DNA of 64,000 nucleotides from Thermoleophilia bacterium (GTDB lineage: Bacteria > Actinomycetota > Thermoleophilia > UBA2241). This document shows positions 5,825 through 52,770 of this stretch, in pieces. The position numbers were made by a program, and so were the translations under genes. The notes under the pieces were generated by a model. That model searched no databases. It saw nothing but the letters and a program-made list of their open reading frames with translations, and had not been told where the DNA came from. Each line of letters begins with the position of its first letter. The first letter of the stretch is position 1. The stretch spans positions 736,868-800,867 of the forward strand of contig JAXGLO010000001.1 in NCBI GenBank assembly GCA_040769125.1, given 5' to 3'.

Positions 5825-5935
5825 CGGCGTGCGGGCGGCGGTCGGTTTGGTCTGGCGACGAGGCGCTGCGTGCTTGAGCACGCTCGGCGCCGTCGACGCC
5901 GTCCCGCTCTCGGCGGCAGTCCGGCAGGAAAGGCG

Positions 5936-7465
5936 ATGACCACGAGCAGGGGCACTACAGGCCGCGGAAGTCCGCCCGGGGGAGCCGGCACGCCGCGCTC
6001 CGGGCGCAAGCCCCTTCTGCGCCTGCCCTCCAGACTGGCCCTGACCGGCATCCGCACGCGTATCCTCCTGGGCTTCATCGTGATGCTCGCGATCGCCACG
6101 GCGGCGTCGCTCTTCGTTGCCTACGAAGTGGTCCAGACCAGACTGCACGAGCGTATCGACAGCGACCTTGCCCGAGAGGCTGAGGAGCTGCGGAAGATCG
6201 CGGCCGGCAAGGACCCCGCCACCGGCCGTAGTTTCGGCCAGAACGCGGCCAGGATCTTCAGGGTCTACTTCGACCAGACTTCACCGACGACGGGCGAGGT
6301 TGCACTCACGTTCGTCGATGGAAGCGAGTTCCTGCGCAGTCGCTCAGTCTCTGCCTCTTCCTCTCCGTCCTACCGCCTCGATACCGATGAGCAGCTCGTC
6401 TCCCACTGGAAGGCTCTCACGGAGCCGGAGCGCGACGGCGTCGACACGCCTGCCGGGAGAGTGGAGTACCTCGCCCTACCCCTGAAGGGCGACGGCCGCG
6501 TGCTCGGTACCTTCGTCGTCGCCGCATTCACCGATGTGCTGCAAGGCCCCTACAACGATGCGTTCCTGGCGGCCGGGGTCGTCGGCGTGGCGGTGCTTCT
6601 CATCGGCTCCCTGCTCGCCTGGCGCATGGCCGAGAGCGTCCTGCAGCCGGTCAGCGCGTTGACGCAGACGGCGCAAGGCATCTCCGAGACGGACCTGACG
6701 CAGCGGATCGAGGTGCGCGGTCACGACGAGCTCGCCGGCCTCGCTGCTACCTTGAACGCAATGCTCGACCGGCTCGAGCGGACCCTGTTGAGTCAGAGGC
6801 GCTTTCTCGACGATGCGGGGCACGAGCTGCGCACCCCGATCACGATCGTCCGTGGGCATCTCGAGCTGCTCGAGGACGACCCTGAGGAGCGGCGGGCGAC
6901 GCTGGATCTCGTGATGGATGAGCTCGACCGCATGACGCGTATGGTCAACGATCTCATCCTGCTCTCGAAGGCCGAGCGTCCCGACTTTCTTAAGCTTGAA
7001 GCGGTCGAGGTGGCGGTGCTGACCGACGAAGTCCTGACCAAAGCGCGTGCGCTGGGAGCGCGGGGCTGGCGGCTCGACGCTTGCGGCAAAGGCGTTATCA
7101 CGGTGGACCGCCAGCGCCTCACCCAGGCGCTCGTGCAGCTCGCGCAGAACGCCGTCACGTACACGCAGGAGGGGGATGAGGTCTCGCTTGGGTCCGCCGT
7201 CGAGGGCGGTGAGGCGCGCTTCTGGGTGCGCGATGACGGCCTCGGCATCGCGGTGGCCGACCAGGAGAGGATCTTCGAGCGCTTCGAGCGCGGCGGGGCC
7301 AGAGGGCCGAGCGGCGGCTCTGGCCTGGGTCTCTCGATCGTGCGCGCGATCGCCGGGGCGCACGGCGGCCGGGTGGATCTGTTCAGCGCCCCCGGCGCGG
7401 GCTCGTTGTTTACAATCGTGGTGCCCGTCGACGGGCCTCGCGGCACGGGGAAGGAGGAAGGATGA
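5936..7465 (+). CDS. Sensor histidine kinase (HAMP-HisKA-HATPase_c)
   Basis: H-box LDDAGHELRTPITIVRGHLELL and ATP-lid motifs DDGLGI ... GGSGLGLSIVRAIAGAHGG. TM helix LLGFIVMLAIATAASLFVAY. I place the start at ATG 5936 (RBS AGGAAAGG); the track ORF begins at 5870. Confidence 0.85.
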   Translation: MTTSRGTTGRGSPPGGAGTPRSGRKPLLRLPSRLALTGIRTRILLGFIVMLAIATAASLFVAYEVVQTRLHERIDSDLAREAEELRKIAAGKDPATGRSFGQNAARIFRVYFDQTSPTTGEVALTFVDGSEFLRSRSVSASSSPSYRLDTDEQLVSHWKALTEPERDGVDTPAGRVEYLALPLKGDGRVLGTFVVAAFTDVLQGPYNDAFLAAGVVGVAVLLIGSLLAWRMAESVLQPVSALTQTAQGISETDLTQRIEVRGHDELAGLAATLNAMLDRLERTLLSQRRFLDDAGHELRTPITIVRGHLELLEDDPEERRATLDLVMDELDRMTRMVNDLILLSKAERPDFLKLEAVEVAVLTDEVLTKARALGARGWRLDACGKGVITVDRQRLTQALVQLAQNAVTYTQEGDEVSLGSAVEGGEARFWVRDDGLGIAVADQERIFERFERGGARGPSGGSGLGLSIVRAIAGAHGGRVDLFSAPGAGSLFTIVVPVDGPRGTGKEEG

Positions 7466-8136
7466 GCCGCATTCTGATAGTCGAAGATGAGGAGCGCATC
7501 GCCTCCTTTCTCGCGAAAGGCCTCCGTGCGCAGGGCTACGTCACCGACATCGCGGCGACCGGCAGCGATGGGCTGGCACGTGCGTTGAGCGGCGACGCCG
7601 ACCTCGTGATCCTCGACATCGGCCTGCCCGACCGGGACGGCTTCTCGGTTCTCAGGGAGCTGCGTCAGTACGACCGGCGCCTCCCGGTGGTGATCCTCAC
7701 CGCCCGCGACGACGTGGAGGACAAGGTCGCCGGGTTCGACGAAGGCGCCAACGACTACGTCACCAAGCCGTTCAAGTTCGACGAGCTCCTCGCGCGCGTG
7801 CGCGTCCGCCTGCGCGAGGGCGAGCGCGCTCCCGCTGAGACGGTGATGCGCGTCGGCGACCTCGCCCTCGATCTGCGGACGCGCCGCGCGCGCGTTGGGC
7901 AGAGGGAGGTCGAGCTGAGCGCCCGCGAGTTCGCCCTCGCCGAGCTTCTCTTCCGGCATCCGGGCCAGGTGCTGAGCCGCGAGCAGATACTCAACAACGT
8001 GTGGGGCTACGGCTTCGACCCGGGTTCGAACATCGTCGACGTCTATATCGGGTATCTGCGCAAGAAGCTCGGGCGCGACTCCATCACGAGCGTTCGCGGC
8101 ATGGGGTACCGGCTGGAGAAGAAGGAAGCCGGCTGA
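7462..8136 (+). CDS. OmpR-family response regulator
   Basis: Receiver domain (ILIVEDE ... LVILDIGLPDRDG ... VVILTARDD ... DDYVTKPF) plus a winged-helix output domain (LSAREFALAELL ... GYRL). It overlaps the kinase gene by 4 nt (ATGA). Confidence 0.9.
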   Translation: MSRILIVEDEERIASFLAKGLRAQGYVTDIAATGSDGLARALSGDADLVILDIGLPDRDGFSVLRELRQYDRRLPVVILTARDDVEDKVAGFDEGANDYVTKPFKFDELLARVRVRLREGERAPAETVMRVGDLALDLRTRRARVGQREVELSAREFALAELLFRHPGQVLSREQILNNVWGYGFDPGSNIVDVYIGYLRKKLGRDSITSVRGMGYRLEKKEAG

Positions 8137-8570: not shown

Positions 8571-8821
8571 AGAGCGCCACCTCCTCAGCACGCGAGCGGC
8601 GCACCGAGATCAGGCGGATGGCCTCACTGCGGTAGGGTGATGACCGCCGACCAGTGCTTGCCGTCGATCACGCCCACAACCAGGAAGCGCAATTCGTCCG
8701 AGGTGCGGGCCGGGATTTCGATAAGCAGCTCGTCGAGCCACAGCGCCTGCGCGGCCACGAAGTCGATACCGTGCTTGGCCTGATTGGCGCGGCTCTTGCG
8801 CTCGTCGAGCTCGAACTGCAA
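8560..8821 (-). pseudogene. brnT: BrnT-family (DUF497) toxin gene interrupted by a +1 frameshift near its 3-prime end
   Basis: MQFELDERKSRANQAKHGIDFVAAQALWLDE ... FLVVGVIDGKHWSAVIT matches the BrnT N-terminal and core. The in-frame ORF stops after ITLPQ at 8624, but shifting one base restores the expected C-terminus ...ITYRSEAIRLISVRRSRAEEVALYEG*, whose stop overlaps the brnA ATG. An extra C in the run atcaccCtaccg explains the break. Confidence 0.6.
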
Positions 8822-9814: not shown

Positions 9815-9890
9815 GCCCTCGTAGCTCAGTGGATAGAGCACAGGTCTCCTAAACCTGGTGTCGAAGGTTCGATTCCTTCCGGGGGCACCA
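9815..9890 (+). tRNA. tRNA-Arg (anticodon CCT)
   Basis: Cloverleaf read in gccctcgtagctcagtggatagagcacaggtctCCTaaacctggtgtcgaaggttcgattccttccgggggcacca: 7-bp acceptor stem, D-arm GCTCAGTGGATAGAGC, anticodon loop cuCCUaa, T-arm GGTTCGATTCC, encoded CCA. Confidence 0.85.
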
Positions 9891-10020
9891 CCATAAGTAT
9901 CCGTGTGCGTACCTTGTCGGCCTTGGGCAGTACGAGGAAGCCTCGGTCTTCTTCCTCGCTTTGGCCGTCGGCGACAGGCGACTAGATGGAGACACCCAGG
10001 TAGTCTCTGACGCTGGCCCG

Positions 10021-10365
10021 TCACTCTTCAGGGACTGGCTCTTCCCCACAGTAGCGGGTGAGCGCAGCCTCAAGACCATCTTGGTCGGGCGTTGCCAGGT
10101 GAGCCTTCGTTTGGATCTTGGCCAGGGATGCGGATTCGAGGTGCACCCAGTCGATGGCGGCCAGCTTTCCATTTGCTATGGAATGCGTCGCGACGCCCGA
10201 CCCTAGCCGGCGAACATTGTCGGCTTCCATGGTTAGAAGTGGTCCGCGCGGAGCCTTCTTGTCGACGCCGACGGCGGCTATGAGCGCGGATCCCATGACG
10301 GGCGTGATCAACAGAATGCCTGCCCCGAGGCCTACCTCGTGTCCCGGCTTGCAATGGTCCATCAC
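10021..10365 (-). CDS. FmdE/FwdE-family domain protein, apparently N-terminally truncated
   Basis: Contains the FmdE-like motif DHCKPGHEVGLGAGILL (GHxCPG-type). The reading frame is open upstream to ~10470 with no ATG, GTG or TTG start, which suggests a remnant next to the tRNA. Confidence 0.4.
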   Translation of the reverse strand: MMDHCKPGHEVGLGAGILLITPVMGSALIAAVGVDKKAPRGPLLTMEADNVRRLGSGVATHSIANGKLAAIDWVHLESASLAKIQTKAHLATPDQDGLEAALTRYCGEEPVPEE

Positions 10366-10475
10366 CTCACGTGGATAGCAGCCTTGGATGTCTGCCAGGC
10401 TTCCCTCTGCGATAGCTGCACGCGCGAAGCAGTCGGAGTTTGCTACAAAGTCTACAGTTATAGCATAATATGTGA

Positions 10476-13400
10476 ATGGATGTGAATGACGGACAGCGCA
10501 ATTGGCTCAACGTTCGAGAGGTCGCTCAGCGGTTGGGCGTGCACGAGAACACAGTGCGGAATTGGACCAAGAAAGGCCTGCTGTCGGCAGCTCGCTTACC
10601 CGGATCCAGGTTCCACAGGTACGACCCGGGAGACGTAGAGAGACTCCTTCTTCAGAGAAAAAGCACTCCGACCTCGCTGTCGCGGCAGCGACTGACTATA
10701 GGGCCAGAACTTGTCAACGCCGGTCAGTTGCGCGCGTGGGCGGGAACGCGTGAGGCTCAGGCTGTGTTCCCCGAATTGATTCGGCGGCTCCTTACGCACA
10801 CGCCTGGCGTAACAAACATATCCATTCGGGCAGGCGATTCCGTGTCTGCACCTGGATGGGATGGTTGTGCGACCTCAGCCGGAACGACTTTCCTGCCGGC
10901 AGGCGAGTTGCGCTTTGAGTTCGGAGTCGATAAGTCGCCGAGGCGGAAAGCCGATCACGACTACAAGGTTCGTGTTCGCCAGCTCGATGGCGAGCCTTCT
11001 AATGCCACGTTCATCTTCGCGACGCCCCGACGGTTCAACAACGCATCAAAATGGGCTGAGAGCAGACAGTCGGAAGGTGCTTTTGCAGGCGTTCGCGTGC
11101 TCGATGCGGACGACCTAGAAGGCTGGCTGCAGACCACGCCCGTTGTCCATCAGTGGATTTCGGAACAGCTCGGCCGGAGGCCAAGCGATGCCCGGACTCT
11201 CGATGAATGGTGGGCTCGGTTTCGAGAGCGTACGAAGCCTCCTCTCCATCCTGGCATTTTCCTAGCGGGCAGAGAGCGCGAGCAGAAGATGCTGGGCGAG
11301 TTCCTTGAGGGCCCACCGGGCGTTCTTTCAGTTCGTGCTCCTTGGCGCGATGAGGCGATCGCGTTCGTGGCGGCAGTGACGGCTGCTCGAGCGAGCCAGG
11401 GCTTGGTGGACTCCATTGGGGTCATCATCAGTTCCGCCGAGGCGTGGGACCGGGTTGTCGATCAGGTGGGGTATGGCACCCTGCTGCCTCTCATCGAGGC
11501 CCCAGGAGTGGCGCGGGCATTGGATCGTGGACATCACGTCATCCTCCCGATTGCGCTGGACGCGATACCTCGAGGCGACACCATCGACCTTCCGCGACCA
11601 GATCGCAACGGCATAATAGAACTTCTCGAAGAGGCTGGGATCTCGTCGCACCGTGGGCACAGGCTTGCTGCCCTGGCCAGGCGCAGCATGCCTTCCTTCA
11701 TTAGGGAGTTGGCGGTCGATCGCACCCTGAATCGTCCGGAGTGGGCCAGCCCTCATGCTGCGCACATTGTGGCTCCTCTCGTCCTTGTGGGTTCATGGAC
11801 AGATACCGAGGCTGACGTCGGAATCGTCGAGAGACTAGTCGGGAGGTCTTGGTCAGACATTGAGCGCACACTACGTGCGCTGAGTGCCACGGAAGATCCG
11901 CCGTTCCTCAGTCGAAGCCGGCGGTGGTATCTCGCTTCGCCACAGGAAGCCATTCTCGTGCTTGCAAGTTTGATTACGGCCGAGGACCTCGCTCGCTGGC
12001 GCGAGGCAGTGTTCGATGTTCTCCTGGAGGTGGACCCCCGGCTGGATCTGAGTCCCCATGATCGCTCCATGGCTGCCGTGACCGGATCAGTGCGCCGCTT
12101 TTCGGGCGCCTTGCGCAAGGGGATCGCTCAAGGTGTCGCTCTTGTTGGGACCCTGTATGACTACCGATTGAGTGGCGGGCAATGCGGCGCAGATCATGCT
12201 CGGGTGCTCGTGCGCGAGATTCTGACTCGTGCGAATGCCGACACAACAGGCCGCACCTGGCAGTCACTCGAGGATGTGCTTCCGCTTTTAGCTGAAGCGG
12301 CGCCGAACGAGTTTCTTGAAGCAGTTCACCTTGATCTCGACCGGGAGGAGCCACTCTTGCGCGACATGTTCCAGGATCGCGATGAGGGTGACCCACTCTC
12401 CTCCTGGTCACCGCACACGGGTCTACTCTGGGCACTTGAGGTGCTCTGCTGGTCTCCCGACTATTTGGCGGATGCGACTTGGGCTCTAGCTCGGCTGGAC
12501 GCCATTGATCCTGGAGGCAGGTTGTCCAATAGGCCATTGAGGAGCTTGGGTAGCGTCCTCGCAGGGCGGGTGCGCCAGACCTGCGCATCGCTCGAAACGC
12601 GTGTGTCGGCTGTGAAAGCAATCTGCCAGCGTGTGCCCGAGACGGGCTGGCAGCTGCTCCTTGCCCTTTGGCCCAGTCATGATTCATGGGCCATGCCGCC
12701 CGTCTCGCCTAAGTTCGAGGACTGGGAACCGGAGAGCAAGAACGTCCTCTTTGTCGAGTACGTCGAGTTCATTGGCGAGCTTGTCCGGCTGGGCGTTCAG
12801 ATGGCCGGCCATGATGCGGTGCGATGGGCTGAGCTGAGCGGCAGGCTCGGCTCACTTCCTCCTAGCGAGCGCGACGAACTGCTGGCGGCTTTCGAGGAGG
12901 TAGTCCAGGATCCGGAAGGCTTCAACAAAGATGAGCGACTCCTGTTATGGGAGCAGCTGCGCCAAACGGTGGAGCGTCACAGGCGCTACCCCACAGCGGA
13001 TTGGTCTCTGAAAAGAGCGCCGCTGGTGCGAATGCAGGCCATTGTTGATCATCTGGAGCCGGTCGATGCAGCGGCACGACTTGCCTACCTGTTTGACTGG
13101 CGTCCTGATTTACCCGGGGTCAATCCGCTCGATCACACCGTGTACGACCGCGAGCTTCTTGATCGCCAGACCCGCGCCCTCGTCGAAGTTTTGCATGACT
13201 CGATCGGCGGCCTCGATCGGCTAGTAGGGCGAAGCCCAGCCCCGGAGATGGTGGGGCGGGCACTTGCCGGAGTCGATTCAGAGGACCTGATTCCTGACTT
13301 GCTGGCATGGATTGTCTCTGATGATGAGAAGCGGCAGAAGTGTGCGAGCGCATGGGCTGTACGGAAGATTCAGGATCACGGAGTGGCGTGGCTGCGCATG

Positions 13401-14453
13401 GCGTTGGCCCTGGAGGGCGCTGCACTTCCAGCGTGTCGCGAGCAGCTTGCGCTCAGCGCAACGCCTAACAGGGAGGTGTGGGACTTGCTGGCAGAGGTCG
13501 ACGCAGAATTGAGCGACGCCTACTGGCAGCAGGTGAGCATATGGCAGCTCGCTCCCGGGGACGTTGAGCGCGCAGTGACTGAGCTGATGTCTCGCGGGCG
13601 GCCATGGGCGGCTCTGGCGCCAATTGCTCTTCATATTCACGATGCCGACGAGGCCACCATTATGGTCACCCCAGATCTCGTGCAGGGGCTGCTTGACGCG
13701 ATGCTGCGTACGGCTCCGGGAGACGCCGCGTCCCAGGCTCCTGGGGATGAAGTGGAGATTCTCCTCGACTACCTAGAGAGCCATGTTGACGCAAGCGTTG
13801 TCGCCCGCTACGAGTTCGGCTTTTTTCCATTACTGGAGTACTGGCGCCAGCCTCGCTCGCTGTTCGCGGTGCTCGCTCGTGATCCGGATGAGTTTGTTGC
13901 GCTGGTACAGCTGGCTTATCGCGGTAAGGACGAGTCAAAGCGCTCGCTAGACGAGCGCGATCAGGCATTAGCGCGGTGTGCCTTCCGGGTTCTTGAGCAC
14001 TGGAAAGGCACCTTCCCTGGGTATGAGGGCGGGACGCTTCGCATGGACGGACTGAGGCAATGGGTTCGACAGGCTCGGGACGCCTTGGCGGAATCCAACA
14101 GGGCAGATATCGGAGACGAGCAGATTGGTCAGGTTCTTGCGCGAAGCGCCGTCGGTGCCGATGGCATTTGGCCAGCGGAAGGCGTGAGGGAACTGATCGA
14201 GGAGATCGGCAGCGAGGGGCTGGAGACGGGCCTGTACATCGGTCTCCGCAATCAACGTGGCGTCACTAGCCGGAGGCCGTTCGAGGGCGGACAGCAAGAA
14301 CGCGATCTGGCGGCGAAATATCGTGCCTGGGAGAAGCAGACAGCGGGGCGGTGGCGTCGTACGAGCCGCCTTCTGCGGTGCGTGGCCGAGAGCTACGAGC
14401 GAGATGCCCGGCGCTGGGATGATGACGCAGAGCTGTTGGCTGATACGGACTGA
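10476..14453 (+). CDS. Large (1325 aa) protein with an N-terminal excisionase/MerR-type HTH and a C-terminal region of unknown function
   Basis: Uninterrupted 3978-nt ORF. The N-terminal motif LNVREVAQRLGVHENTVRNWTKKGLL ... RYDPGDVERL is HTH_17-like. The remainder is alpha-helical and Trp/Leu-rich. It contains a P-loop-like but lysine-less segment, LEGPPGVLSVRAPWRDEAIAFVAAV. I find no intact Walker A, helicase or nuclease motifs. Confidence 0.85.
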   Translation: MDVNDGQRNWLNVREVAQRLGVHENTVRNWTKKGLLSAARLPGSRFHRYDPGDVERLLLQRKSTPTSLSRQRLTIGPELVNAGQLRAWAGTREAQAVFPELIRRLLTHTPGVTNISIRAGDSVSAPGWDGCATSAGTTFLPAGELRFEFGVDKSPRRKADHDYKVRVRQLDGEPSNATFIFATPRRFNNASKWAESRQSEGAFAGVRVLDADDLEGWLQTTPVVHQWISEQLGRRPSDARTLDEWWARFRERTKPPLHPGIFLAGREREQKMLGEFLEGPPGVLSVRAPWRDEAIAFVAAVTAARASQGLVDSIGVIISSAEAWDRVVDQVGYGTLLPLIEAPGVARALDRGHHVILPIALDAIPRGDTIDLPRPDRNGIIELLEEAGISSHRGHRLAALARRSMPSFIRELAVDRTLNRPEWASPHAAHIVAPLVLVGSWTDTEADVGIVERLVGRSWSDIERTLRALSATEDPPFLSRSRRWYLASPQEAILVLASLITAEDLARWREAVFDVLLEVDPRLDLSPHDRSMAAVTGSVRRFSGALRKGIAQGVALVGTLYDYRLSGGQCGADHARVLVREILTRANADTTGRTWQSLEDVLPLLAEAAPNEFLEAVHLDLDREEPLLRDMFQDRDEGDPLSSWSPHTGLLWALEVLCWSPDYLADATWALARLDAIDPGGRLSNRPLRSLGSVLAGRVRQTCASLETRVSAVKAICQRVPETGWQLLLALWPSHDSWAMPPVSPKFEDWEPESKNVLFVEYVEFIGELVRLGVQMAGHDAVRWAELSGRLGSLPPSERDELLAAFEEVVQDPEGFNKDERLLLWEQLRQTVERHRRYPTADWSLKRAPLVRMQAIVDHLEPVDAAARLAYLFDWRPDLPGVNPLDHTVYDRELLDRQTRALVEVLHDSIGGLDRLVGRSPAPEMVGRALAGVDSEDLIPDLLAWIVSDDEKRQKCASAWAVRKIQDHGVAWLRMALALEGAALPACREQLALSATPNREVWDLLAEVDAELSDAYWQQVSIWQLAPGDVERAVTELMSRGRPWAALAPIALHIHDADEATIMVTPDLVQGLLDAMLRTAPGDAASQAPGDEVEILLDYLESHVDASVVARYEFGFFPLLEYWRQPRSLFAVLARDPDEFVALVQLAYRGKDESKRSLDERDQALARCAFRVLEHWKGTFPGYEGGTLRMDGLRQWVRQARDALAESNRADIGDEQIGQVLARSAVGADGIWPAEGVRELIEEIGSEGLETGLYIGLRNQRGVTSRRPFEGGQQERDLAAKYRAWEKQTAGRWRRTSRLLRCVAESYERDARRWDDDAELLADTD

Positions 14454-14567
14454 GTGCCGCGCAGTCGGCAGCACTACTGACACCGGCTGGCGCTGGCTTC
14501 ACGCCGGCAAGCTCGCGAACCGGCCGTACATCAGGCGCTTCTGCGCTCCTCAGACGTCGTGTAGGCC

Positions 14568-14677
14568 TGTGCACGGCGCCTGGCTCGCAGCCGAATCCTG
14601 CTTACGAGTCGCTCCTTAATGGCTTGTCGCGATCTCGTTACCGCAACCTCCGTCACCCAGCAGTGATAGCGTGCCAG
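14568..14677. repeat. Copy 1 of a ~110-nt imperfect direct repeat (about 80% identity to 19053..19162)
   Basis: tgtgcacggcgcc...cgagtcgctcct...cctccgtcacccagcagtgatagcgtgccag; the final ~40 nt are nearly identical between copies. Confidence 0.75.
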
Positions 14678-14721
14678 CCGATTGACAGGCGCATATTCCT
14701 TCCGGATAGGGGGGTGTTGAT

Positions 14722-15669
14722 GTGACGCGCAAGCGTTGGCTCATGCTTGTTGCCGTGGCGGCCGTGGCGATCATCGCCGGTGTGCTGGCGTGGGGGCTGA
14801 GTGGCTCAACGCTCACGGCCACCGTAGTCGACAAGCGAACCGGCGAGCCGCTGCCGAAGGTCGTCGCTAAGGTGGACGATGAGTCCATCTCTACGTCAGA
14901 TGGACGAGTCGACGTCAAGATTGCGCTCGGGACGCACACAGTCGAGTTTGCAGCGGCGGGCTACGAGACCGTCTCGCGCACAGTGGAAGCGCGCATCTTC
15001 CGCGCGGCCGATCTTGGCGAAGTGCCCCTGCGCAATGCAGATCTGGTCATCAAGGTGGTCGAGAACTTCCCCGGTGAACCACCGGTCAAGGCGGCCAGGC
15101 TTGAGGTCGCCGGTGAGACCAGCATGGTGCGACGGGGTGACGCGGTGACAATCGAGGGCCTGGCAATCGGCCCGACTACGCTGAAGGCTACAGCCAGGGA
15201 CTACGAACCTACGAACGTCGAGCTCGAGCTAACGCCGGGGTCGAACGAAGTCGTTGTCAGCCTGACCCCCGAGATGCTCGTTGTCGTGCGGCGGGCGATA
15301 CAGGCCTCTTTCGACCACGACCACTTGCTGAACTGGGAGCTCCTGCATCCGGATCGCCAACGGCTGCACGGCTCGCGGGCCGCATACCTCAAGAAGAGGC
15401 GAAGGGCTGTTGATGAGCTGCTCGACGAGGGCATCGTCCCCCAGCGCTTTAAGGTCTTGACCCCCTTCTTCGTCAAGCGCTACCACGACAAGGCCACCGG
15501 CAAGACTTACAAGGATGCCTACCGCGTGCCCATCACGATATGGGCGGGAGCCCCTCAGCTGGCCATCTTCAACATGAAGTCGATGGCCGTGACACAGGAC
15601 AGCTACTGGGTGAAGACGGATGAGGGTCGCTGGGTAAGCCTCGGTGACGGTGAATCGGTGGACAAGTAG
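14722..15669 (+). CDS. Membrane-anchored protein with carboxypeptidase-regulatory-like (Ig-like) domains
   Basis: N-terminal TM/signal anchor WLMLVAVAAVAIIAGVLAW, then TATVVDKRTGEPLPKVVAKVDD ... GTHTVEFAAAGYETVSRTVEA, which is typical of CarbopepD_reg-like folds. Confidence 0.75.
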   Translation: MTRKRWLMLVAVAAVAIIAGVLAWGLSGSTLTATVVDKRTGEPLPKVVAKVDDESISTSDGRVDVKIALGTHTVEFAAAGYETVSRTVEARIFRAADLGEVPLRNADLVIKVVENFPGEPPVKAARLEVAGETSMVRRGDAVTIEGLAIGPTTLKATARDYEPTNVELELTPGSNEVVVSLTPEMLVVVRRAIQASFDHDHLLNWELLHPDRQRLHGSRAAYLKKRRRAVDELLDEGIVPQRFKVLTPFFVKRYHDKATGKTYKDAYRVPITIWAGAPQLAIFNMKSMAVTQDSYWVKTDEGRWVSLGDGESVDK

Positions 15670-15809
15670 AGTCCCGGCCTCTCGCCCAGAACAGCATCGT
15701 GAAGCAGGGGAACGGCGGTCTCGCAAAGTCATCACTGTGTGGAGTGCCGGCGCCGCTGGCGTGACCTTCCCTATTGGCAACGGTGTGTCGAATAGAGCGC
15801 CCTGTACAG

Positions 15810-16118
15810 GTGATCTTGAGGGCAGATAGGTTGAGGGGTGGTGTGGCGGGCTTTGGTCTGGTGCTTGTGTCAGCGGGACTTGCTTCCTGCAATGGGAGAG
15901 CTGTCGTGTCGTACTCCAAGGCTGGAGCGAGGAGGCCGGCATGCCTGACCTGTGCGAGACGCTTCTACTCGAGAGCAGCTGGACGTCCTGATTGCGGAGC
16001 TTACGGCGCTGCGCTTCGAGATGCCTCTGTTGAAGGACCGGTGAGGGAGCGTTGGGCGTGCGGCATCCTGCAGTTCAGCCGAAGCGAAGGGCCGTTCGAG
16101 GAGCGAGGCGATGAGTGA
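15810..16118 (+). CDS. Putative small Cys-rich lipoprotein
   Basis: The GTG at 15810 gives a signal peptide ILRADRLRGGVAGFGLVLVSAGLASC with lipobox L-A-S-C. The stop TGA overlaps the ATG of the next gene (gATGAgtga). The track ORF starts at ATG 15774. Confidence 0.35.
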   Translation: MILRADRLRGGVAGFGLVLVSAGLASCNGRAVVSYSKAGARRPACLTCARRFYSRAAGRPDCGAYGAALRDASVEGPVRERWACGILQFSRSEGPFEERGDE

Positions 16119-16821
16119 CCCGGTCGATGTCCTTGAACCCAATCCGATCTTAGGGTTGATCAAGTTCGGCGCCGCTGCCCACCTGCGCGAACTGTGCCTC
16201 CAAGGGCGCCTTTTCATGAATGCGCTGAACTACTTCAGGCAGCTGAATGATGATCCGGCGCGAGGCGACGGCGATGAGGGCCTCATGTACTGTTATCAGC
16301 CCTCTCGTACTGCAGTGGAGGTCCGAGCGAAAGGCACCTGGCAACGAGTCGGGGGTATCGTTGGTCCCATCAAGTGCCGCGAGGGGAACGGCACGAACGG
16401 GAACCTGTTCTGCATGTTCGCGCTCAGAGCAAGCCATGCTGTGGCCTTTGCTGAGGCGAGGCGCCCGCTCATCGACGAGCGAAACCGGGCTTTCGGAGAC
16501 AGCGCTGTCGTCATCACTGACGTCGACGAGTTCCTGCGGCGTGTGACCGTCGCCACAGAGCGGGAAGGTCTGAGGCTGTACGCAAGACCTGTTAACTACG
16601 TCAACCAGCACAGCTACCATGGGCCCATGGGGTTCTTTCGCAAGTTCTCCGACTACTCATATCAGAGCGAGTTCCGACTGCTGGTCAAACCAGGGTGCAC
16701 TGGCCCGCGCTCCCTTGAGTTGGGCTCGATCGAGGACATCGCGGTGATGGTGGCCTCGGAGAGCATCAACAGCCTGCTCCGGGTGAGATCGGATGACGGA
16801 GGAGTGTACGGCCCTCCATGA
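16111..16821 (+). CDS. Hypothetical protein (236 aa), candidate effector
   Basis: Clean ORF coupled to the upstream ORF. Its N-terminal pattern LGLIKFGAAAHLRELCLQGRLFMNALNYFRQL resembles conserved N-termini of several phage-defence-associated families, but I cannot assign it to one. Confidence 0.7.
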   Translation: MSDPVDVLEPNPILGLIKFGAAAHLRELCLQGRLFMNALNYFRQLNDDPARGDGDEGLMYCYQPSRTAVEVRAKGTWQRVGGIVGPIKCREGNGTNGNLFCMFALRASHAVAFAEARRPLIDERNRAFGDSAVVITDVDEFLRRVTVATEREGLRLYARPVNYVNQHSYHGPMGFFRKFSDYSYQSEFRLLVKPGCTGPRSLELGSIEDIAVMVASESINSLLRVRSDDGGVYGPP

Positions 16822-16888
16822 TGCCGCGCCGTGCGCTGATGGTGGCGATGTGATGTCAGTAGGGGCTGTCCAAAGAACGGAGGGATTG

Positions 16889-17458
16889 ATGATTGTTCTG
16901 GATGTTCGGCTCGTTGGCTGCGAGTTCGAGGAGGCTGACGTCGCCGCCGTGCGCCGCGAGTCCACCTCGGTCTTGGCGCTGAGGGCGACTGGCCGGGGTT
17001 CGACAGGGGCCGGCCCAGGGCTCGAGGTCACAACGGTCATCTACTTTATTGGCGGGTCTTTCGTGGGCTTTGTGCTCGAGAAGGTCTTCGACGCCGTCTG
17101 GGAGCGGCTGAGGAGTGCCTGGACTCGCTTTCGTGACGACCGCAGGAGTCGGCAGCGGTCTGATCCGACCTTCGGCAGGGTGGTCATCCGCACGGATGAT
17201 ATGGAGGTCGAGATCAGGCGTCTGGACGCCGACATTGAGCCCCCCGATCTCAGCGGGCTCCTTGAGCTAGTCGCGAATCGTCTCGAGAGCGGGTCACTTC
17301 GCGAGGTGCCCGTCGACAGCATCACGATCCCGCCGCCGCGCTCGGTGGGAGGTCCTCGCGACCGGGCTCAGGATTCGCAACTCTGGTATGTGGTGGCTCG
17401 CTCGATTGAGGGGCGCTGGGGACTCTACGATGCCGGCGAGGATCGCTGGCTGGACTGA
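16889..17458 (+). CDS. Hypothetical protein (189 aa from the ATG at 16889)
   Basis: Strong RBS (ACGGAGGG, 5 nt before the ATG at 16889). Longer in-frame alternatives at 16853 and 16793 overlap the preceding gene. One hydrophobic segment, VTTVIYFIGGSFVGFVL. Confidence 0.55.
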   Translation: MIVLDVRLVGCEFEEADVAAVRRESTSVLALRATGRGSTGAGPGLEVTTVIYFIGGSFVGFVLEKVFDAVWERLRSAWTRFRDDRRSRQRSDPTFGRVVIRTDDMEVEIRRLDADIEPPDLSGLLELVANRLESGSLREVPVDSITIPPPRSVGGPRDRAQDSQLWYVVARSIEGRWGLYDAGEDRWLD

Positions 17459-17661
17459 ACTGGTGGCGCCAACGTCCTTGATCTGGGCCTGGCGCTCGTT
17501 TCTCAATTAGCCTTCGGGCTTGCCAGCACGCCGTTGGTAGCAGCTCCACGTGCAGATCTTCTTACCTGGGTGGATGTTATGGAAGCCTGTGCAGCGAGGC
17601 TTTCGTGAGAACGGGCGCCCTCCCGCGCTTTAGTAGGTACGATGATCGATGTAATGAGGCG

Positions 17662-18864
17662 ATGAAAGGGCGGCGTGTGGAATACCGCATCACAGCAGAG
17701 GAACGGATCCCTAACAGTGGAGAGGATCGCACCCCCCGCTACCAGTTTAATATTACTGGTGGTCGCAATGAGACTGTGTGCTCTATACATGCATTGGGAT
17801 CTCTCAAAGCATGCGGATCTCTCAGTGAAATCGACTGGGAGGAAGTACTGAGTATGGTAGCGATCGATCAGATCGAGAGGACGCTCTTGGCAGATGCGCT
17901 CGACTGGTCGATCAATCCTTACCGTTGGGAGGTCAGTGATGAAGAGACCATCTTGAACGTAGACCGCGTCTCGAAGCTATGCGACATGCGCCTTCCGGCC
18001 AAGCCAAGAGGATTTCTATGTGCGGCCACAGAGACAGGCGATCCTGAGCCCACGACTCTGCCACTTTGCATGACGTGCGATATGCCGGACGCGCGCCTTG
18101 TCTGCAGTGGCTTGGTGCATCCGGTGACAGCCCTATCTAAAGCAGACGCCGACACGCTCTCACTCTCGGGCAATAGCGCGACTGCCGCGGACAATGTCGG
18201 TTTCAAGCGGAGCGTCACGAGAGCGTTTTGCGAGGCCCATCCCGAGTCTCAAGACTGGAAGAAATGTCGCCCGTGGCTCAGAGGCTGCTGGTACAGGATT
18301 GTTGATACGAGCGAAGCCGCGCCGTCACCTGACAGTGCCGCACCTAGGCGCATCGTGGATGAAGTCGGATACTTGCGCCTTGTGTACGCCGATCGTTTCC
18401 GGGTGAAGGCGAGTGAATTCTGGCCAAATCGCGATCCCAGTGCATATGCTGTCCTTCTTGATGATTCGTGTACGTCTCCTCGTCAGTTTGCGCACAACAT
18501 AGTCGTTTTGGACGATGTGCTCAGTGCCATGAATCCTCACGAGCAGCTGGCTGAAGACCGCAGGAAAAACGGCAGCCGTGTGAATGGAATCACGGCCATG
18601 GGTCGTGTCCTTGAGGATTGTATTGACGGTACAGACTGCTCTTACGTCAAGCCACTTCAGGCGTTGAAGACCGTTCGCAACTCCTTCTCGCACCAGCCTG
18701 GTGCCAAGTTGCTGGAAGCCCTGGGGACGCTCGGGGTTCAGTCCTATCCGCCCCACGATTGGCAGATCGCTTGGTGGCAAGTCGCCGCATCCGTGGCTCA
18801 GGCGCTCGCATCGATTCGATGGATACTCCAGACAACTAATGTCGACGATCCACAGGAAAGTTAG
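17662..18864 (+). CDS. Cys-rich protein with a C-terminal HEPN-like Rx4H motif (Abi-like)
   Basis: Start at MKGRRV (GAGG RBS). Several CxxC-type clusters in the N-terminal half. Near the C-terminus LQALKTVRNSFSHQPG fits the R-x4-6-H HEPN RNase signature seen in Abi_2/AbiD-like proteins. Confidence 0.7.
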   Translation: MKGRRVEYRITAEERIPNSGEDRTPRYQFNITGGRNETVCSIHALGSLKACGSLSEIDWEEVLSMVAIDQIERTLLADALDWSINPYRWEVSDEETILNVDRVSKLCDMRLPAKPRGFLCAATETGDPEPTTLPLCMTCDMPDARLVCSGLVHPVTALSKADADTLSLSGNSATAADNVGFKRSVTRAFCEAHPESQDWKKCRPWLRGCWYRIVDTSEAAPSPDSAAPRRIVDEVGYLRLVYADRFRVKASEFWPNRDPSAYAVLLDDSCTSPRQFAHNIVVLDDVLSAMNPHEQLAEDRRKNGSRVNGITAMGRVLEDCIDGTDCSYVKPLQALKTVRNSFSHQPGAKLLEALGTLGVQSYPPHDWQIAWWQVAASVAQALASIRWILQTTNVDDPQES

Positions 18865-19052
18865 ACGAGGTGATTTCCCTCTCGCGTTCTCGTGTCGCCG
18901 CTGAAGCGGGTTTCCTCTGATTATGGCGCTTCCGTTGCTTGGCGCGGGAGCGTTGTGGCTTGTCACCAAGTGCCTCGGCGCATTGGCGATAGTCGTCGGA
19001 TAATAATGACTTTGCAGATGCCTCTTCTTGCGGCTGACAGATCGTGCATACT

Positions 19053-19162
19053 TGTGCACGGCACCCGGTTCGCAGGCGAATCCCCCTCGCGAGTCGCTCC
19101 TCAACAGCCTGCCTCGCTCTTGCGGCCGCAGCCTCCGTCACCCAGCAGTGATAGCGTGTCAG
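19053..19162. repeat. Copy 2 of the ~110-nt imperfect direct repeat
   Basis: tgtgcacggcacccggttcgcaggcgaatccccctcgcgagtcgctcct...cctccgtcacccagcagtgatagcgtgtcag. Confidence 0.75.
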
Positions 19163-19253
19163 GTAATCGGTAGGCGCTCATTCCCTCCGACCGTGTATCT
19201 ACGTCCGCGGCATCGATGAGCGCCGTAGGGGCGGCGTAGCAGCGAGGTGAGAT

Positions 19254-25223
<5,970 letters not shown>

Positions 25224-52559: not shown

Positions 52560-52770
52560 GGCTTGCCTATACTCTGTTGAGGATTACTCTCAGCTGCTGG
52601 GAATCCGGTCAAAGGCCGGAGCTGCCCCGCAACTGTAGGCGCAGACGATCACCGCATTGTGCCGCCGTCTCACGACGTGAAGGCACGGTCGGTAGTCCGA
52701 AGCGCAAGCCAGGTACCACGGCTGGGAGTGCATCGCGAATAGACCTCGAGGGAGGGCTGCGGTGAGCTTG
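52560..52770 (+). ncRNA. Cobalamin (B12) riboswitch upstream of the cbi operon
   Basis: The conserved core gggaatccggtcaaaggccggagctgccccgcaactgtagg plus a downstream gaaggcacggtcgg B12-box-like segment. Position is ~50-250 nt upstream of cbiA. Confidence 0.6.

Follow-up and report, generated by a model that had tools for sequence, protein, structure and literature searches.

In the NLR/STAND receptors of animals, plants and bacteria, nucleotide exchange or binding is thought to license oligomerisation. The antiviral STAND NTPases Avs3 and Avs4 carry N-terminal nuclease effectors, and a structure of Avs4 is available (8dgf). Avs5 (AVAST type 5, SIR2-STAND; 9nc9, 9jap) couples a SIR2 effector to a functional ATPase, with Walker motifs described in both papers. 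Precedent for a dead NOD is provided by KpAvs8 of the PD-lambda-4 family, an Avs-type receptor with degenerate Walker motifs that is probably ATPase-independent (10.64898/2026.01.04.697583, Extended Data Fig. 10), and by the inactive STAND domains of BREX, the iSTANDs BrxB/BrxF, PglW and type-4 PglZ, which have STAND/ORC-Cdc6-like folds, have lost both Walker A and Walker B and are non-enzymatic (PMC12839542). Two further defence proteins, DSR2, with a SIR2 effector and a HEAT-repeat sensor (PMC11263360), and Upx, with a PD-(D/E)xK effector and terminase as the sensed component (PMC13601566), resemble the protein described below in being single large polypeptides in which an effector is placed under a big sensor without ATP hydrolysis.

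The gene studied here encodes 1325 amino acids and, as the preliminary description had stated, exceeds every other gene of the window (the whole stretch of 64,000 nucleotides that was analysed) in size, the runners-up being ORFs of 1044 and 769 aa. Full-length homologs share 47-57% identity with its product, and the assigned ATG is supported by a promoter-to-ATG spacing that is kept across related loci. The domain content had been called essentially unknown, and past the N-terminal HTH the protein was indeed recognised by nothing in Pfam, NCBIfam, PADLOC or a PDB sequence search; in the same way, no PADLOC, Pfam or NCBIfam defence model matched the core of the query or of six distant members. 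The domain order established from conservation and structure models (Table 1) is an optional DNA-binding head, a PD-(D/E)xK nuclease, an NBD, a helical bundle, a winged helix and a HEAT/ARM solenoid. Avs proteins with a nuclease, Avs3 and Avs4 among them, show this same succession of effector, NOD and repeat sensor.

Table 1. Features of the gene and its upstream region, in window coordinates.
Feature	Residues	Position	Strand	Basis or remark
tRNA-Arg(CCT)		9815..9890	+	586 nt upstream of gene; ARAGORN; Rfam tRNA 70 bits
Operator-like direct repeat TACAA-AGTC-TACAG		10444..10457	+	overlaps promoter -35/spacer; window version of family element CACAA-AGTC-CACAA
-10 box CATAAT		10464..10469	+	6 nt before ATG; promoter scan TTGCTA-18-CATAAT
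Coding sequence	1325 aa + stop	10476..14453	+	ORF call, full-length homologs
HTH_17 (excisionase/BldC/MerR-type) head, accessory and modular	10-61	10503..10658	+	profile and PDB matches
Predicted PD-(D/E)xK (Mrr/FokI-like) nuclease domain	~77-250	10704..11225	+	putative catalytic D129, E148, K158 and invariant R166
Predicted inactive NBD (AAA+/STAND Rossmann-like core), no P-loop	~262-372	11259..11591	+	structure model
Segment previously called P-loop-like, LEGPPGVLSVRAPWRDEAIAFVAAV	277-301	11304..11378	+	helix end, GPPG turn, b1, short connector, a1
GHHVILPIAL, strand b4 at the sensor-1 position, after conserved G352-H353	352-361	11529..11558	+	DSSP strand 354-360
Helical bundle (R402, R403, R410) and winged helix (H-S-H-H-S-S), completing the NOD	~377-420 and ~426-486	11604..11933	+	
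HEAT/ARM-like alpha-solenoid, presumed sensor/scaffold	~489-1325	11940..14450	+	structure model
Hyper-conserved C-terminal module, R1261-G-x-T-x-R1266 ... G1271-G1272-x-x-E1275	1196-1325	14061..14450	+	conservation peak

With somewhat better than even confidence, we read the gene as encoding a single-polypeptide, NLR/Avs-like immune nuclease whose NOD has no nucleotide-binding loop, and the most likely role of its family is phage defence of bacteria. Before activation, the dead NOD together with the solenoid would keep the nuclease domains of separate copies apart. An invader-derived ligand on the solenoid would then free the NOD surfaces for self-association without nucleotide exchange, bringing the FokI/Mrr-like nuclease domains together for DNA cleavage, and the outcome would be either destruction of the invader DNA or abortive infection. 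An HTH_17 head bound to the promoter repeat would ensure tight autorepression of a potentially toxic nuclease, and in other lineages the same end may be reached with HigA/HipB/DicA-type XRE heads, or with no head at all.

While the layout is that of Avs3 and Avs4, the family differs from both in the loss of Walker A and the lack of a dependable Walker B, in a HEAT/ARM-like sensor with invariant motifs in place of variable TPR, in its optional DNA-binding head and in a defence role that is predicted; nor did the query match any Avs, NACHT or NB-ARC model at the sequence level. Compared with Avs5, the protein has a nuclease as effector and no P-loop. Degeneration in Avs8 concerns one homolog, EcAvs8 retaining the motifs, whereas here the loss is family-wide, and the PADLOC PD-lambda-4 models did not match the query. 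The iSTANDs of BREX have no helical bundle at the C-terminus and are encoded in BREX/BR loci of several genes, while the present protein has bundle and winged helix and is encoded by a single gene; identity as a BREX iSTAND was rejected on this retained bundle and winged helix, the absence of PglZ, PglX and BrxC neighbours and the absence of any PADLOC Brx match. DSR2 differs in its SIR2 effector and in having no NOD. Upx, in which a beta-rich sensor stands at the N-terminus, the nuclease at the C-terminus and a STAND fold is missing (PMC13601566), was rejected as well, because the order here is the opposite, the sensor all-helical and a STAND-like NOD present. PADLOC gave no sequence match to either DSR2 or Upx.

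The nuclease domain shows the alpha-beta-beta-beta-alpha-beta core of the PD-(D/E)xK fold, and its best matches were the type IIS and type IV restriction enzymes FokI, BspD6I, MspJI and AspBHI. D129, E148, K158 and R166 are kept in 138-143 of 143 divergent representatives, with D129 and E148 at the expected strands (142/143). The canonical (D/E)xK lysine is replaced, position 150 (+2) being G or S, and the invariant K158 lies on the helix following the E148 strand, a known variant type; its catalytic role is thus only assumed. Since these four residues are near-invariant and the HTH is dispensable, the domain is likely to be the effector. The preliminary description had overlooked this domain, which holds the most conserved residues of the family.

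The predicted effector (residues 77-250) shares one polypeptide with a C-terminal helical-repeat sensor (residues 489-1325). Conserved patches of the solenoid fall at residues 601-700 (SPHTGLLWALE, DPGGRLSNRP), and residues 750-1100 are the least conserved. In the C-terminal module, G1271 and G1272 are found in 143/143 representatives, E1275 in 142, G1262 in 135 and R1261 in 133, and the RGxTxR...GGxxE motif forms a loop between helices in the structure model (model B positions 723-731). The near-invariance of E655 and of RGxTxR...GGxxE may reflect a ligand that is conserved or an interface within the molecule. Near-invariant motifs of this kind are unusual for an arms-race sensor. A bolder extension of the immune-nuclease reading, which we hold to be doubtful, is that the family forms a major unrecognised prokaryotic NLR-like branch, in which the NOD is a purely structural, nucleotide-independent switch family-wide and the solenoid motifs (E655, DPGGRLSNRP, RGxTxR...GGxxE1275) bind a conserved ligand (for example a small molecule, some feature of nucleic acids or a factor from the host) instead of forming a fast-evolving phage-protein interface. 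If true, such a nucleotide-independent branch would be invisible to surveys seeded on NTPase motifs, and its conserved-ligand sensing would differ from the mode of the characterised Avs proteins.

The same conservation would fit a constant ligand such as DNA, and it is in this form that the best-surviving rival can be put: a restriction-like, DNA-sensing nuclease in which solenoid and winged helix grip DNA directly, in the way of condensin HEAT subunits, the dead NOD is only a structural spacer and foreign or modified DNA is cut by the FokI/Mrr/MspJI-like domain in a type IV/IIS-like manner. The restriction enzymes heading the nuclease matches, the DNA-binding condensin HEAT subunit among the top solenoid matches, the DNA-binding heads on many members and the complete type I R-M system that adjoins the gene downstream in the window are all consistent with it. 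However, R-M neighbours are not kept at other loci and no methyltransferase recurs as a partner, matches to helical-repeat proteins are generic, and a mere spacer would hardly be expected to keep an NBD, a helical bundle and a winged helix, so that we consider this explanation unlikely.

The family is very large and unnamed (6,503 clusters at 50% identity), is patchily distributed over at least eight phyla and is found on tRNA/tmRNA-linked islands, on plasmids and rarely in prophages; phrog_18693 was matched at an E-value of 1e-138. In the window, the tRNA-Arg(CCT) gene is the probable integration site of an island carrying the gene: GC content drops from 0.68 to about 0.60 over roughly 8 to 22 kb. 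The window contains no repeat of the tRNA 3' end that could stand for an attR. A complete type I R-M system downstream of the gene adds to the conflict or mobile setting. At 33 of 60 related loci a tRNA or tmRNA is found no more than 10 kb away, many different tRNAs being involved, and at five (L002, L008, L009, L010, L020) it stands directly upstream in the same orientation. A minimal island, L053, has tRNA-Gly copies on both sides of the gene. Of 80 loci examined, 15 had integrases and four had serine recombinases. Defence-type neighbours at related loci comprise GajB, a DRT RT-helicase, PDC-S53/S15/S68 and mad3, and plasmid copies occur amid Abi, SIR2, RES-Xre, AbiEii, RT-SLATT, Shedu and DUF4238 genes. 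As many chromosomal copies sit beside plain housekeeping genes (pyruvate kinase, CysRS, SmpB), this enrichment is moderate, not overwhelming, and no conserved or obligate partner gene was found across the related loci.

These settings also suit a gene that serves the mobile element itself, be it a plasmid or an integrative element: as a module for addiction, exclusion or competition among elements, its autorepressed toxic nuclease would keep the element stable or attack competing ones. On plasmids of Arthrobacter and Shewanella the family gene adjoins partition genes, on one of Thalassospira it is bracketed by TA pairs, it is cargo of many tRNA-/tmRNA-integrating elements including the minimal island, and several of its alternative heads are antitoxin-like (HigA, HipB). 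This reading, which overlaps largely with a defence role and is hard to separate from it by sequence, nevertheless lacks a cognate antitoxin gene and a conserved partner, and some 1,300 aa with a sensor-like solenoid are atypical of addiction toxins; we regard it as unlikely too.

Because Pfam, NCBIfam and PADLOC all lack a model for the core, thousands of genomes annotate these proteins only as 'helix-turn-helix protein' or 'excisionase'. Such labels mislead, and a family model would set them right and bring in a candidate defence system made of one gene, notably abundant in under-studied soil Actinomycetota.

The preliminary description had proposed a degenerate STAND-like scaffold on the strength of two segments, read as the relic of a Walker A/B pair that had lost its lysine. 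Both segments exist at residues 277-301 and 352-361, and the structure model does show the NBD, helical domain and winged helix of a STAND/Avs NOD, with an AAA+/STAND NTPase fold in the region concerned (b1 283-288, a1 291-307, b2 315-318, b3 335-338, b4 354-360, b5 368-371). The fold was therefore borne out, without a phosphate-binding loop; the motif assignments were wrong. In the model, GPPG (279-282) precedes b1 and does not lie between b1 and a1, and it is weakly conserved (G 36/78, P 27/78, P 38/78). GHHVILPI is a strand at the sensor-1 position (G352 113/143, H353 132/143, V355 125/143). The Walker-B position is in fact on b3, LLPL-I-E (335-341), where residue 341 is D/E in 75/143 and otherwise a gap or another residue.

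The b1-to-a1 connector consists of four residues in 177 of 190 family proteins, with the consensus [AGS]-[DE]-[ST/W]-R-[ED]-E and without a Gly-rich loop or Lys. Homologs with an intact GxxxxGK[ST] at this place had been sought, and none was found between b1 and a1 among 78 proteins from the loci and 269 from databases; the only two strict regex matches fall at about residue 1160, inside the solenoid. On these grounds, the protein is judged from alignment and model to have a NOD whose nucleotide-binding loop has been lost throughout the family, and not, as first supposed, a local relic in one protein. No NACHT, NB-ARC, AAA or Avs profile in Pfam, NCBIfam or PADLOC matched the query or six distant members at E-values up to 1, and hhalign gave a probability of <1% against a neighbouring Walker-A-positive STAND-like protein. 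A P-loop-deleted family with full NOD scaffold, effector and sensor would offer a natural test of scaffold-only gating and of substitutes for the nucleotide.

It might be envisaged that the NOD is not dead and acts as a ligand-gated switch, binding a nucleotide or phosphorylated ligand non-canonically, for instance via R291, H353, R402, R403 and R410. Besides H353, several arginines near the former active site show strong conservation (R402 128/143, R403 126/143, R410 140/143), and an acidic residue is frequent at the Walker-B position. That acid, however, is not invariant, and in place of a Gly-rich loop the four-residue connector runs into an acidic helix cap ([DE]-[ED]) that would make phosphate binding electrostatically unfavourable, leaving the proposal distinctly improbable.

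The excisionase-type HTH claimed for the N-terminus was confirmed by matches of residues 10-61 to Pfam HTH_17 (E-value 3.6e-10; 40.4 bits against a cut-off of 27) and to MerR_1, with further matches to NCBIfam HTH_BldC (5e-7) and excise (6e-6) and to PADLOC mad1 (1.3e-9), and, in the PDB, to Xis Gp37 and BldC. As its scores remain below the curated cut-offs of TIGR01764 excise (26.5 against 28.8) and NF033787 BldC (29.4 against 77), the head is a member of the HTH_17 superfamily and not an excise or BldC equivalog. An excisionase identity was rejected because this HTH is not a small stand-alone protein but forms one polypeptide with a 1,250-aa core; the ORFs scanned between 4 and 30 kb of the window included no cognate integrase. 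MADS Mad1 was likewise rejected, the PADLOC mad1 match being limited to the HTH (residues 9-62) and NCBIfam MADS1 scoring 15.2 bits against a cut-off of 80; the downstream ORFs in the window had no PADLOC match, and thus no neighbouring mad genes were found. The suggested fusion to a DNA-binding head holds for this protein but does not define the family, since other members carry an XRE/HigA-type domain (HTH_3, of antitoxin or repressor type, HigA/HipB/DicA-like), a LexA-like domain, a small beta-rich domain or nothing, and the head-less class of about 1,260 aa predominates among divergent representatives.

A transcription factor of STAND type, comparable to AfsR/SARP, LAL or MalT (the last a STAND regulator from bacteria; PMC10427625), with the solenoid sensing, the NOD multimerising and the HTH as output, would account for the N-terminal HTH, NOD-like module and repeat sensor and for a conserved DNA element tied to the HTH, but is very improbable, given that the HTH is missing from a large part of the family while the nuclease residues are near-invariant, that the sole conserved element found lies at the gene's own promoter, with no conserved adjoining operon to regulate, and that known regulators retain intact Walker motifs.

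That element, the 14-mer CACAAAGTCCACAA, was found with up to two mismatches at the same position in 47 of 60 HTH_17-headed loci (29 exact), whereas the 16 loci whose head is of another type or missing all had at least five mismatches; random 210-nt windows gave 1/1,853 at up to two mismatches. The head shares its HTH_17 match with BldC and Xis, although these are small, stand-alone proteins and the head is fused to a large core. BldC occupies direct repeats, the kind of element that is paired with the head, in the form of head-to-tail multimers (PMC5859096). This precedent, the strict pairing of element and HTH_17 head and the antitoxin- or repressor-type nature of the alternative heads argue for autoregulation, and most likely the head binds the CACAA-AGTC-CACAA repeat at its own promoter; the pairing could in part mirror shared descent in Actinomycetota and Chloroflexota. 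Related loci show the geometry of the window promoter, TATACT or TATCAT followed after 6-8 nt by the ATG, and a -10 box 6 nt from the ATG predicts a leaderless mRNA. Head and direct-repeat promoter would together make up a compact autoregulated expression cassette. The window copy of the 14-mer has three mismatches, with an identical C-to-T change in both half-sites.

Two AlphaFold2 models, each built from 121-sequence alignments, covered residues 66-560 (pLDDT 92.6, pTM 0.85) and 540-1325 (pLDDT 92.5, pTM 0.81) of the large protein, and both were confident. Its domain architecture, which we regard as firmly assigned, comprises an N-terminal head, a PD-(D/E)xK (Mrr/FokI-like) nuclease domain at about residues 77-250, a NOD made up of an NBD, a helical bundle and a winged helix, and a HEAT/ARM-like solenoid from about residue 489 to the C-terminus. 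The protein is best classed as an NLR/Avs-like effector-NOD-sensor protein in which the NOD is inactive across the whole family.

The preliminary description had placed the largest gene of the window, encoding 1325 aa with an excisionase-type HTH, at 10476-14453. Both statements were borne out for this plus-strand ORF, as the next largest ORFs encode 1044 and 769 aa, and Pfam HTH_17 (40.4 bits; cut-off 27) and MerR_1 were matched by residues 10-61. The HTH scored slightly under the NCBIfam cut-off of 'excise' and far under that of BldC, it was matched by the HTH-only PADLOC model Mad1, and searches of PDB sequences with the protein or with a 30-sequence profile returned only the HTHs of mycobacteriophage Xis and BldC. 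The rest of the protein was without a match in Pfam, NCBIfam, PADLOC or PDB sequences, and six phylogenetically distant members had no Pfam/NCBIfam match outside their heads.

Two peptides, which are indeed present at residues 277-301 and 352-361, had been read as the relic of a Walker A/B pair without its lysine. The intuition about the fold held, while the assignment of the motifs did not. The model places the GPPG turn (279-282), weakly conserved among relatives, ahead of strand b1 (283-288, VLSVRA), and GHHVILPI is strand b4, the sensor-1 strand, in which G352-H353 are strongly conserved. A very short connector joins b1 to helix a1 (291-307); it has four residues in 177/190 family proteins (PWRD, DWRD and GSRD, for example), and its consensus, [AGS]-[DE]-[ST/W]-R-[ED]-E, contains neither a glycine-rich loop nor a lysine and has an acidic helix cap. 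The Walker-B position is taken by b3 (335-338, LLPL) plus I-E, and roughly half of the divergent members keep the acid at residue 341. A search for homologues with an intact GxxxxGK[ST] had been suggested; none of 78 loci-derived and 269 database proteins has a Walker A at the NBD position, and a strict Walker A regular expression matched twice, both times near residue 1160 in the solenoid. As judged from these proteins, loss of the P-loop is a trait of the whole family and not of this one protein.

Conservation was counted over 143 divergent full-length representatives with 31-50% identity to the query. Within the nuclease domain, D129 and E148 were each retained in 142, K158 in 138 and R166 in all 143, and within the solenoid and C-terminal part the counts were 142 for E655 and E1275 and 143 for G1271 and G1272. 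The best-conserved stretches are the nuclease domain (76-250), the C-terminal 130 residues and, within the solenoid, a patch at 601-700 with the motifs SPHTGLLWALE and DPGGRLSNRP; residues 750-1100 are the least conserved. Residue 150, the canonical lysine position of (D/E)xK, is G or S, and K158 sits on the next helix; D129, E148 and K158 are taken as a putative active site. The invariant solenoid motifs are atypical for arms-race sensors and may form an interface for autoinhibition or bind a conserved ligand.

A role of the family in conflict or defence is probable. Nuclease-bearing Avs proteins suggest a specific activation scheme, put forward tentatively: a ligand derived from the invader would bind the solenoid, self-association would be driven by NOD surfaces, and the FokI/Mrr-like nuclease domains, a type that generally must pair, would go on to cleave DNA. 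With the P-loop lost, the switch would be nucleotide-independent or would operate via another ligand. Alternatively, the protein could be a restriction-like nuclease that senses DNA directly; the gene could serve its mobile element selfishly, as an addiction or exclusion module; or the NOD could act as a non-canonical nucleotide switch. A STAND-type transcription factor is the weakest reading, given an HTH that is dispensable and nuclease residues that are invariant.

Precedents for the P-loop loss are KpAvs8, for which degenerate Walker motifs have been reported (10.64898/2026.01.04.697583), and the inactive STAND domains known from BREX proteins (PMC12839542). BREX iSTAND proteins, however, lack the helical bundle and are encoded in multi-gene loci, and the protein studied here differs from them on both counts. 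It lies outside BREX iSTAND, Upx and DSR2, each excluded as a home family on architecture, and outside MADS, membership of which was excluded since the PADLOC mad1 match covers the HTH only and is accompanied by no mad neighbours. By the defining NTPase motifs, the family is also outside Avs. No named family with this architecture was found in the literature, and neither there nor in the library models (Pfam, NCBIfam, PADLOC) was a name for the family found.

A word-indexed search with the protein gave at least 889 relatives; among the matches listed, these were of ~1,320-1,340 aa with 47-57% identity, came mostly from Actinomycetota MAGs and were named just 'excisionase family' or 'helix-turn-helix'. 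An exhaustive HMMER search of 1.84 billion representatives with the head-less core (residues 80-1279) returned 6,503 clusters at 50% identity (E up to 1e-3), or 2,874 (E up to 1e-30), in two main length classes, near 1,260 and 1,325 aa. From residue 740 on, one 586-aa database protein (P0121) showed 100% identity to the query over the matched stretch, which spans positions 661-1200 of the 1200-aa core query, indicating that the exact sequence is already in public assemblies as a gene cut by a contig end. A single-sequence scan of genome contigs gave no matches, relatives there being recovered only by an alignment-based scan, which confirmed 469 in species-representative genomes of Actinomycetota, Chloroflexota, Bacillota (Paenibacillus, Aneurinibacillus), Cyanobacteria (Microcoleus), Acidobacteriota, Planctomycetota and others. 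The family gene was also present on 24 plasmids, from Rhizobium, Shewanella, Cupriavidus, Ralstonia, Thalassospira, Adhaeribacter, Arthrobacter and others. Although phrog_18693 (unknown function) aligns with residues 80-1318 (E 1e-138), a main niche as a phage gene was ruled out by the scarcity of the core in viral contigs, where it occurred in about 3-5 of 2.9 million from IMG/VR and, as one weak match, in GenBank phage records.

The head, upstream of core residue 77, varies among members. Most from Actinomycetota and Chloroflexota carry HTH_17, the Rhizobium and Shewanella plasmid members and the related locus L065 an HTH_3/XRE head scoring as HigA, HipB/Y4mF or DicA, locus L067 a LexA-like wHTH, and Acidimicrobiia members a beta-rich head of about 75 aa; in Bacillota, Cyanobacteria, Shewanella BA175 and others it is absent. 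At the Acidimicrobiia loci L057, L059, L064 and L071, the HTH is swapped for this small domain, e.g. LIVDLGFPTADGVVRGSLAISDLDDLVVEVGDTIEVMDSGEGPYEAEVVEV... Long N-terminal extensions (database proteins P0170, P0186, P0188 and others) were ruled out as informative fusions, since they contain just extra HTHs and one TPR. Most likely, the heads hold expression low.

The HTH_17-headed loci share a new conserved cis-element, the direct repeat CACAA-AGTC-CACAA(T), present in three tandem copies in some and followed by 4-6 nt, a -10-like box (TATACT, TATCAT or CATAAT), 6-8 nt and the ATG. The 14-mer occurred with at most 2 mismatches in 47/60 of these loci (exactly in 29) and in 1/1,853 random 210-nt windows, and 0/16 loci with another head or none came closer than 5 mismatches; part of this head-element association may be owed to shared descent. 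The window has the same geometry, which speaks for the start codon as annotated and would make the mRNA leaderless. An inverted-repeat operator was looked for upstream of the gene, was not found and was dropped, the conserved element being a direct repeat. BldC-type HTH proteins form head-to-tail multimers on direct repeats (PMC5859096), and on this analogy the simplest reading is that the HTH_17 head would autoregulate its own promoter. The start codon is also spanned by a tandem 10-mer, ATGTGAATGG then ATGTGAATGA (10470-10489), its sole occurrence in the window (0.04 expected by chance); it yields a two-codon mini-ORF (ATG TGA) directly before the real ATG and is absent from related loci.

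Features of the window, with positions in nucleotides
Feature	Position	Strand	Remarks
Histidine kinase	5870-7465		HAMP/HisKA/HATPase_c; just upstream of the island
Response regulator	7462-8136		OmpR-type; just upstream of the island
Direct-repeat copy	10444-10457		TACAAAGTCTACAG; geometry as in related loci
-10-like box	10464-10469		CATAAT; agrees with promoter scan; ATG at 10476
Large gene	10476-14453	+	1325 aa; largest ORF
Four co-oriented ORFs	14722-18864		Unknown function; between large gene and hsdM
hsdM	19254-20837		N6_Mtase + HsdM_N
hsdS	20821-22092		One clear TRD match
hsdR	22089-25223		HSDR_N, SWI2_SNF2, T1RH-like_C
Cobalamin riboswitch	52598-52718	+	Rfam RF00174, 54 bits

Clustering of the ORFs flanking 80 loci gave no conserved partner gene. 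Tyrosine integrases (15 loci) and serine recombinases (4 loci) recurred, and a tRNA or tmRNA, of many different tRNAs, lay within 10 kb in 33/60 loci. The 143 nearest neighbours in 41 loci included UvrD/AAA_30 helicases, integrases, TrwC, FRG and ResIII, with PADLOC matches to GajB, DRT RT-helicase, PDC-S53/S15/S68 and mad3 amid ordinary housekeeping genes. Of the plasmid copies, that of Thalassospira stands amid Abi, SIR2, RES-Xre pairs and AbiEii, that of Rhizobium amid RT-SLATT, Shedu and DUF2357, and that of Adhaeribacter amid ImmA/IrrE, PDDEXK and DUF4238, while others adjoin partition genes. The enrichment of defence genes near the family gene is moderate. Given these mobile-element surroundings and the lack of a conserved partner, the gene acts as autonomous cargo of diverse mobile elements. 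At locus L053, two same-strand tRNA-Gly(CCC) copies (8722-8795 and 14081-14152) flank essentially the family gene alone (10001-13933), suggesting a minimal island of one gene whose tRNA attachment site has been duplicated. At seven loci of Micrococcales and Propionibacteriales genomes (L023, L024, L026, L028, L031, L034, L036), a 1389-aa protein with an intact Walker A (GPAGIGKT) and a restriction-endonuclease-like N-terminus is encoded about 300 nt downstream on the same strand; it has no detectable homology to the family (hhalign probability <1%), which ruled it out as an active paralogue, and its gene could be another defence gene of the island, of the classical STAND type.

A tRNA-Arg(CCT) precedes the window's large gene by 586 nt, GC falls from ~0.68 to ~0.60 over 8-22 kb, and the 3' end of the tRNA has no attR-like copy elsewhere in the window. 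Downstream, four ORFs of 315 aa (CarboxypepD_reg), 236 aa (phrog_26561, unknown function), 221 aa and 419 aa, with no PADLOC or other defence match and none adjoining the family gene in other genomes, precede a complete type I R-M system. The window neighbours (these ORFs, hsdMSR and the response regulator) were ruled out as operon partners, as none co-occurs with the family gene elsewhere. Locus L065 has an hsdM/hsdR pair, 62-64% identical to that of the window, near its family gene. A 148-nt direct repeat (14557-14704 and 19042-19189), its two copies 77% identical and sharing a 27-nt core, CCTCCGTCACCCAGCAGTGATAGCGTG, without mismatch, brackets the four ORFs before hsdM and has no Rfam match; it could be a duplicated promoter/leader region or mark the two ends of a cassette that was inserted. 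Stop and start codons overlap in the two-component system (5870-8136). Beside the cobalamin riboswitch, low-GC patches at 44-46 kb (GC 0.50) and 50-52 kb (GC 0.53) may be further horizontally acquired segments.
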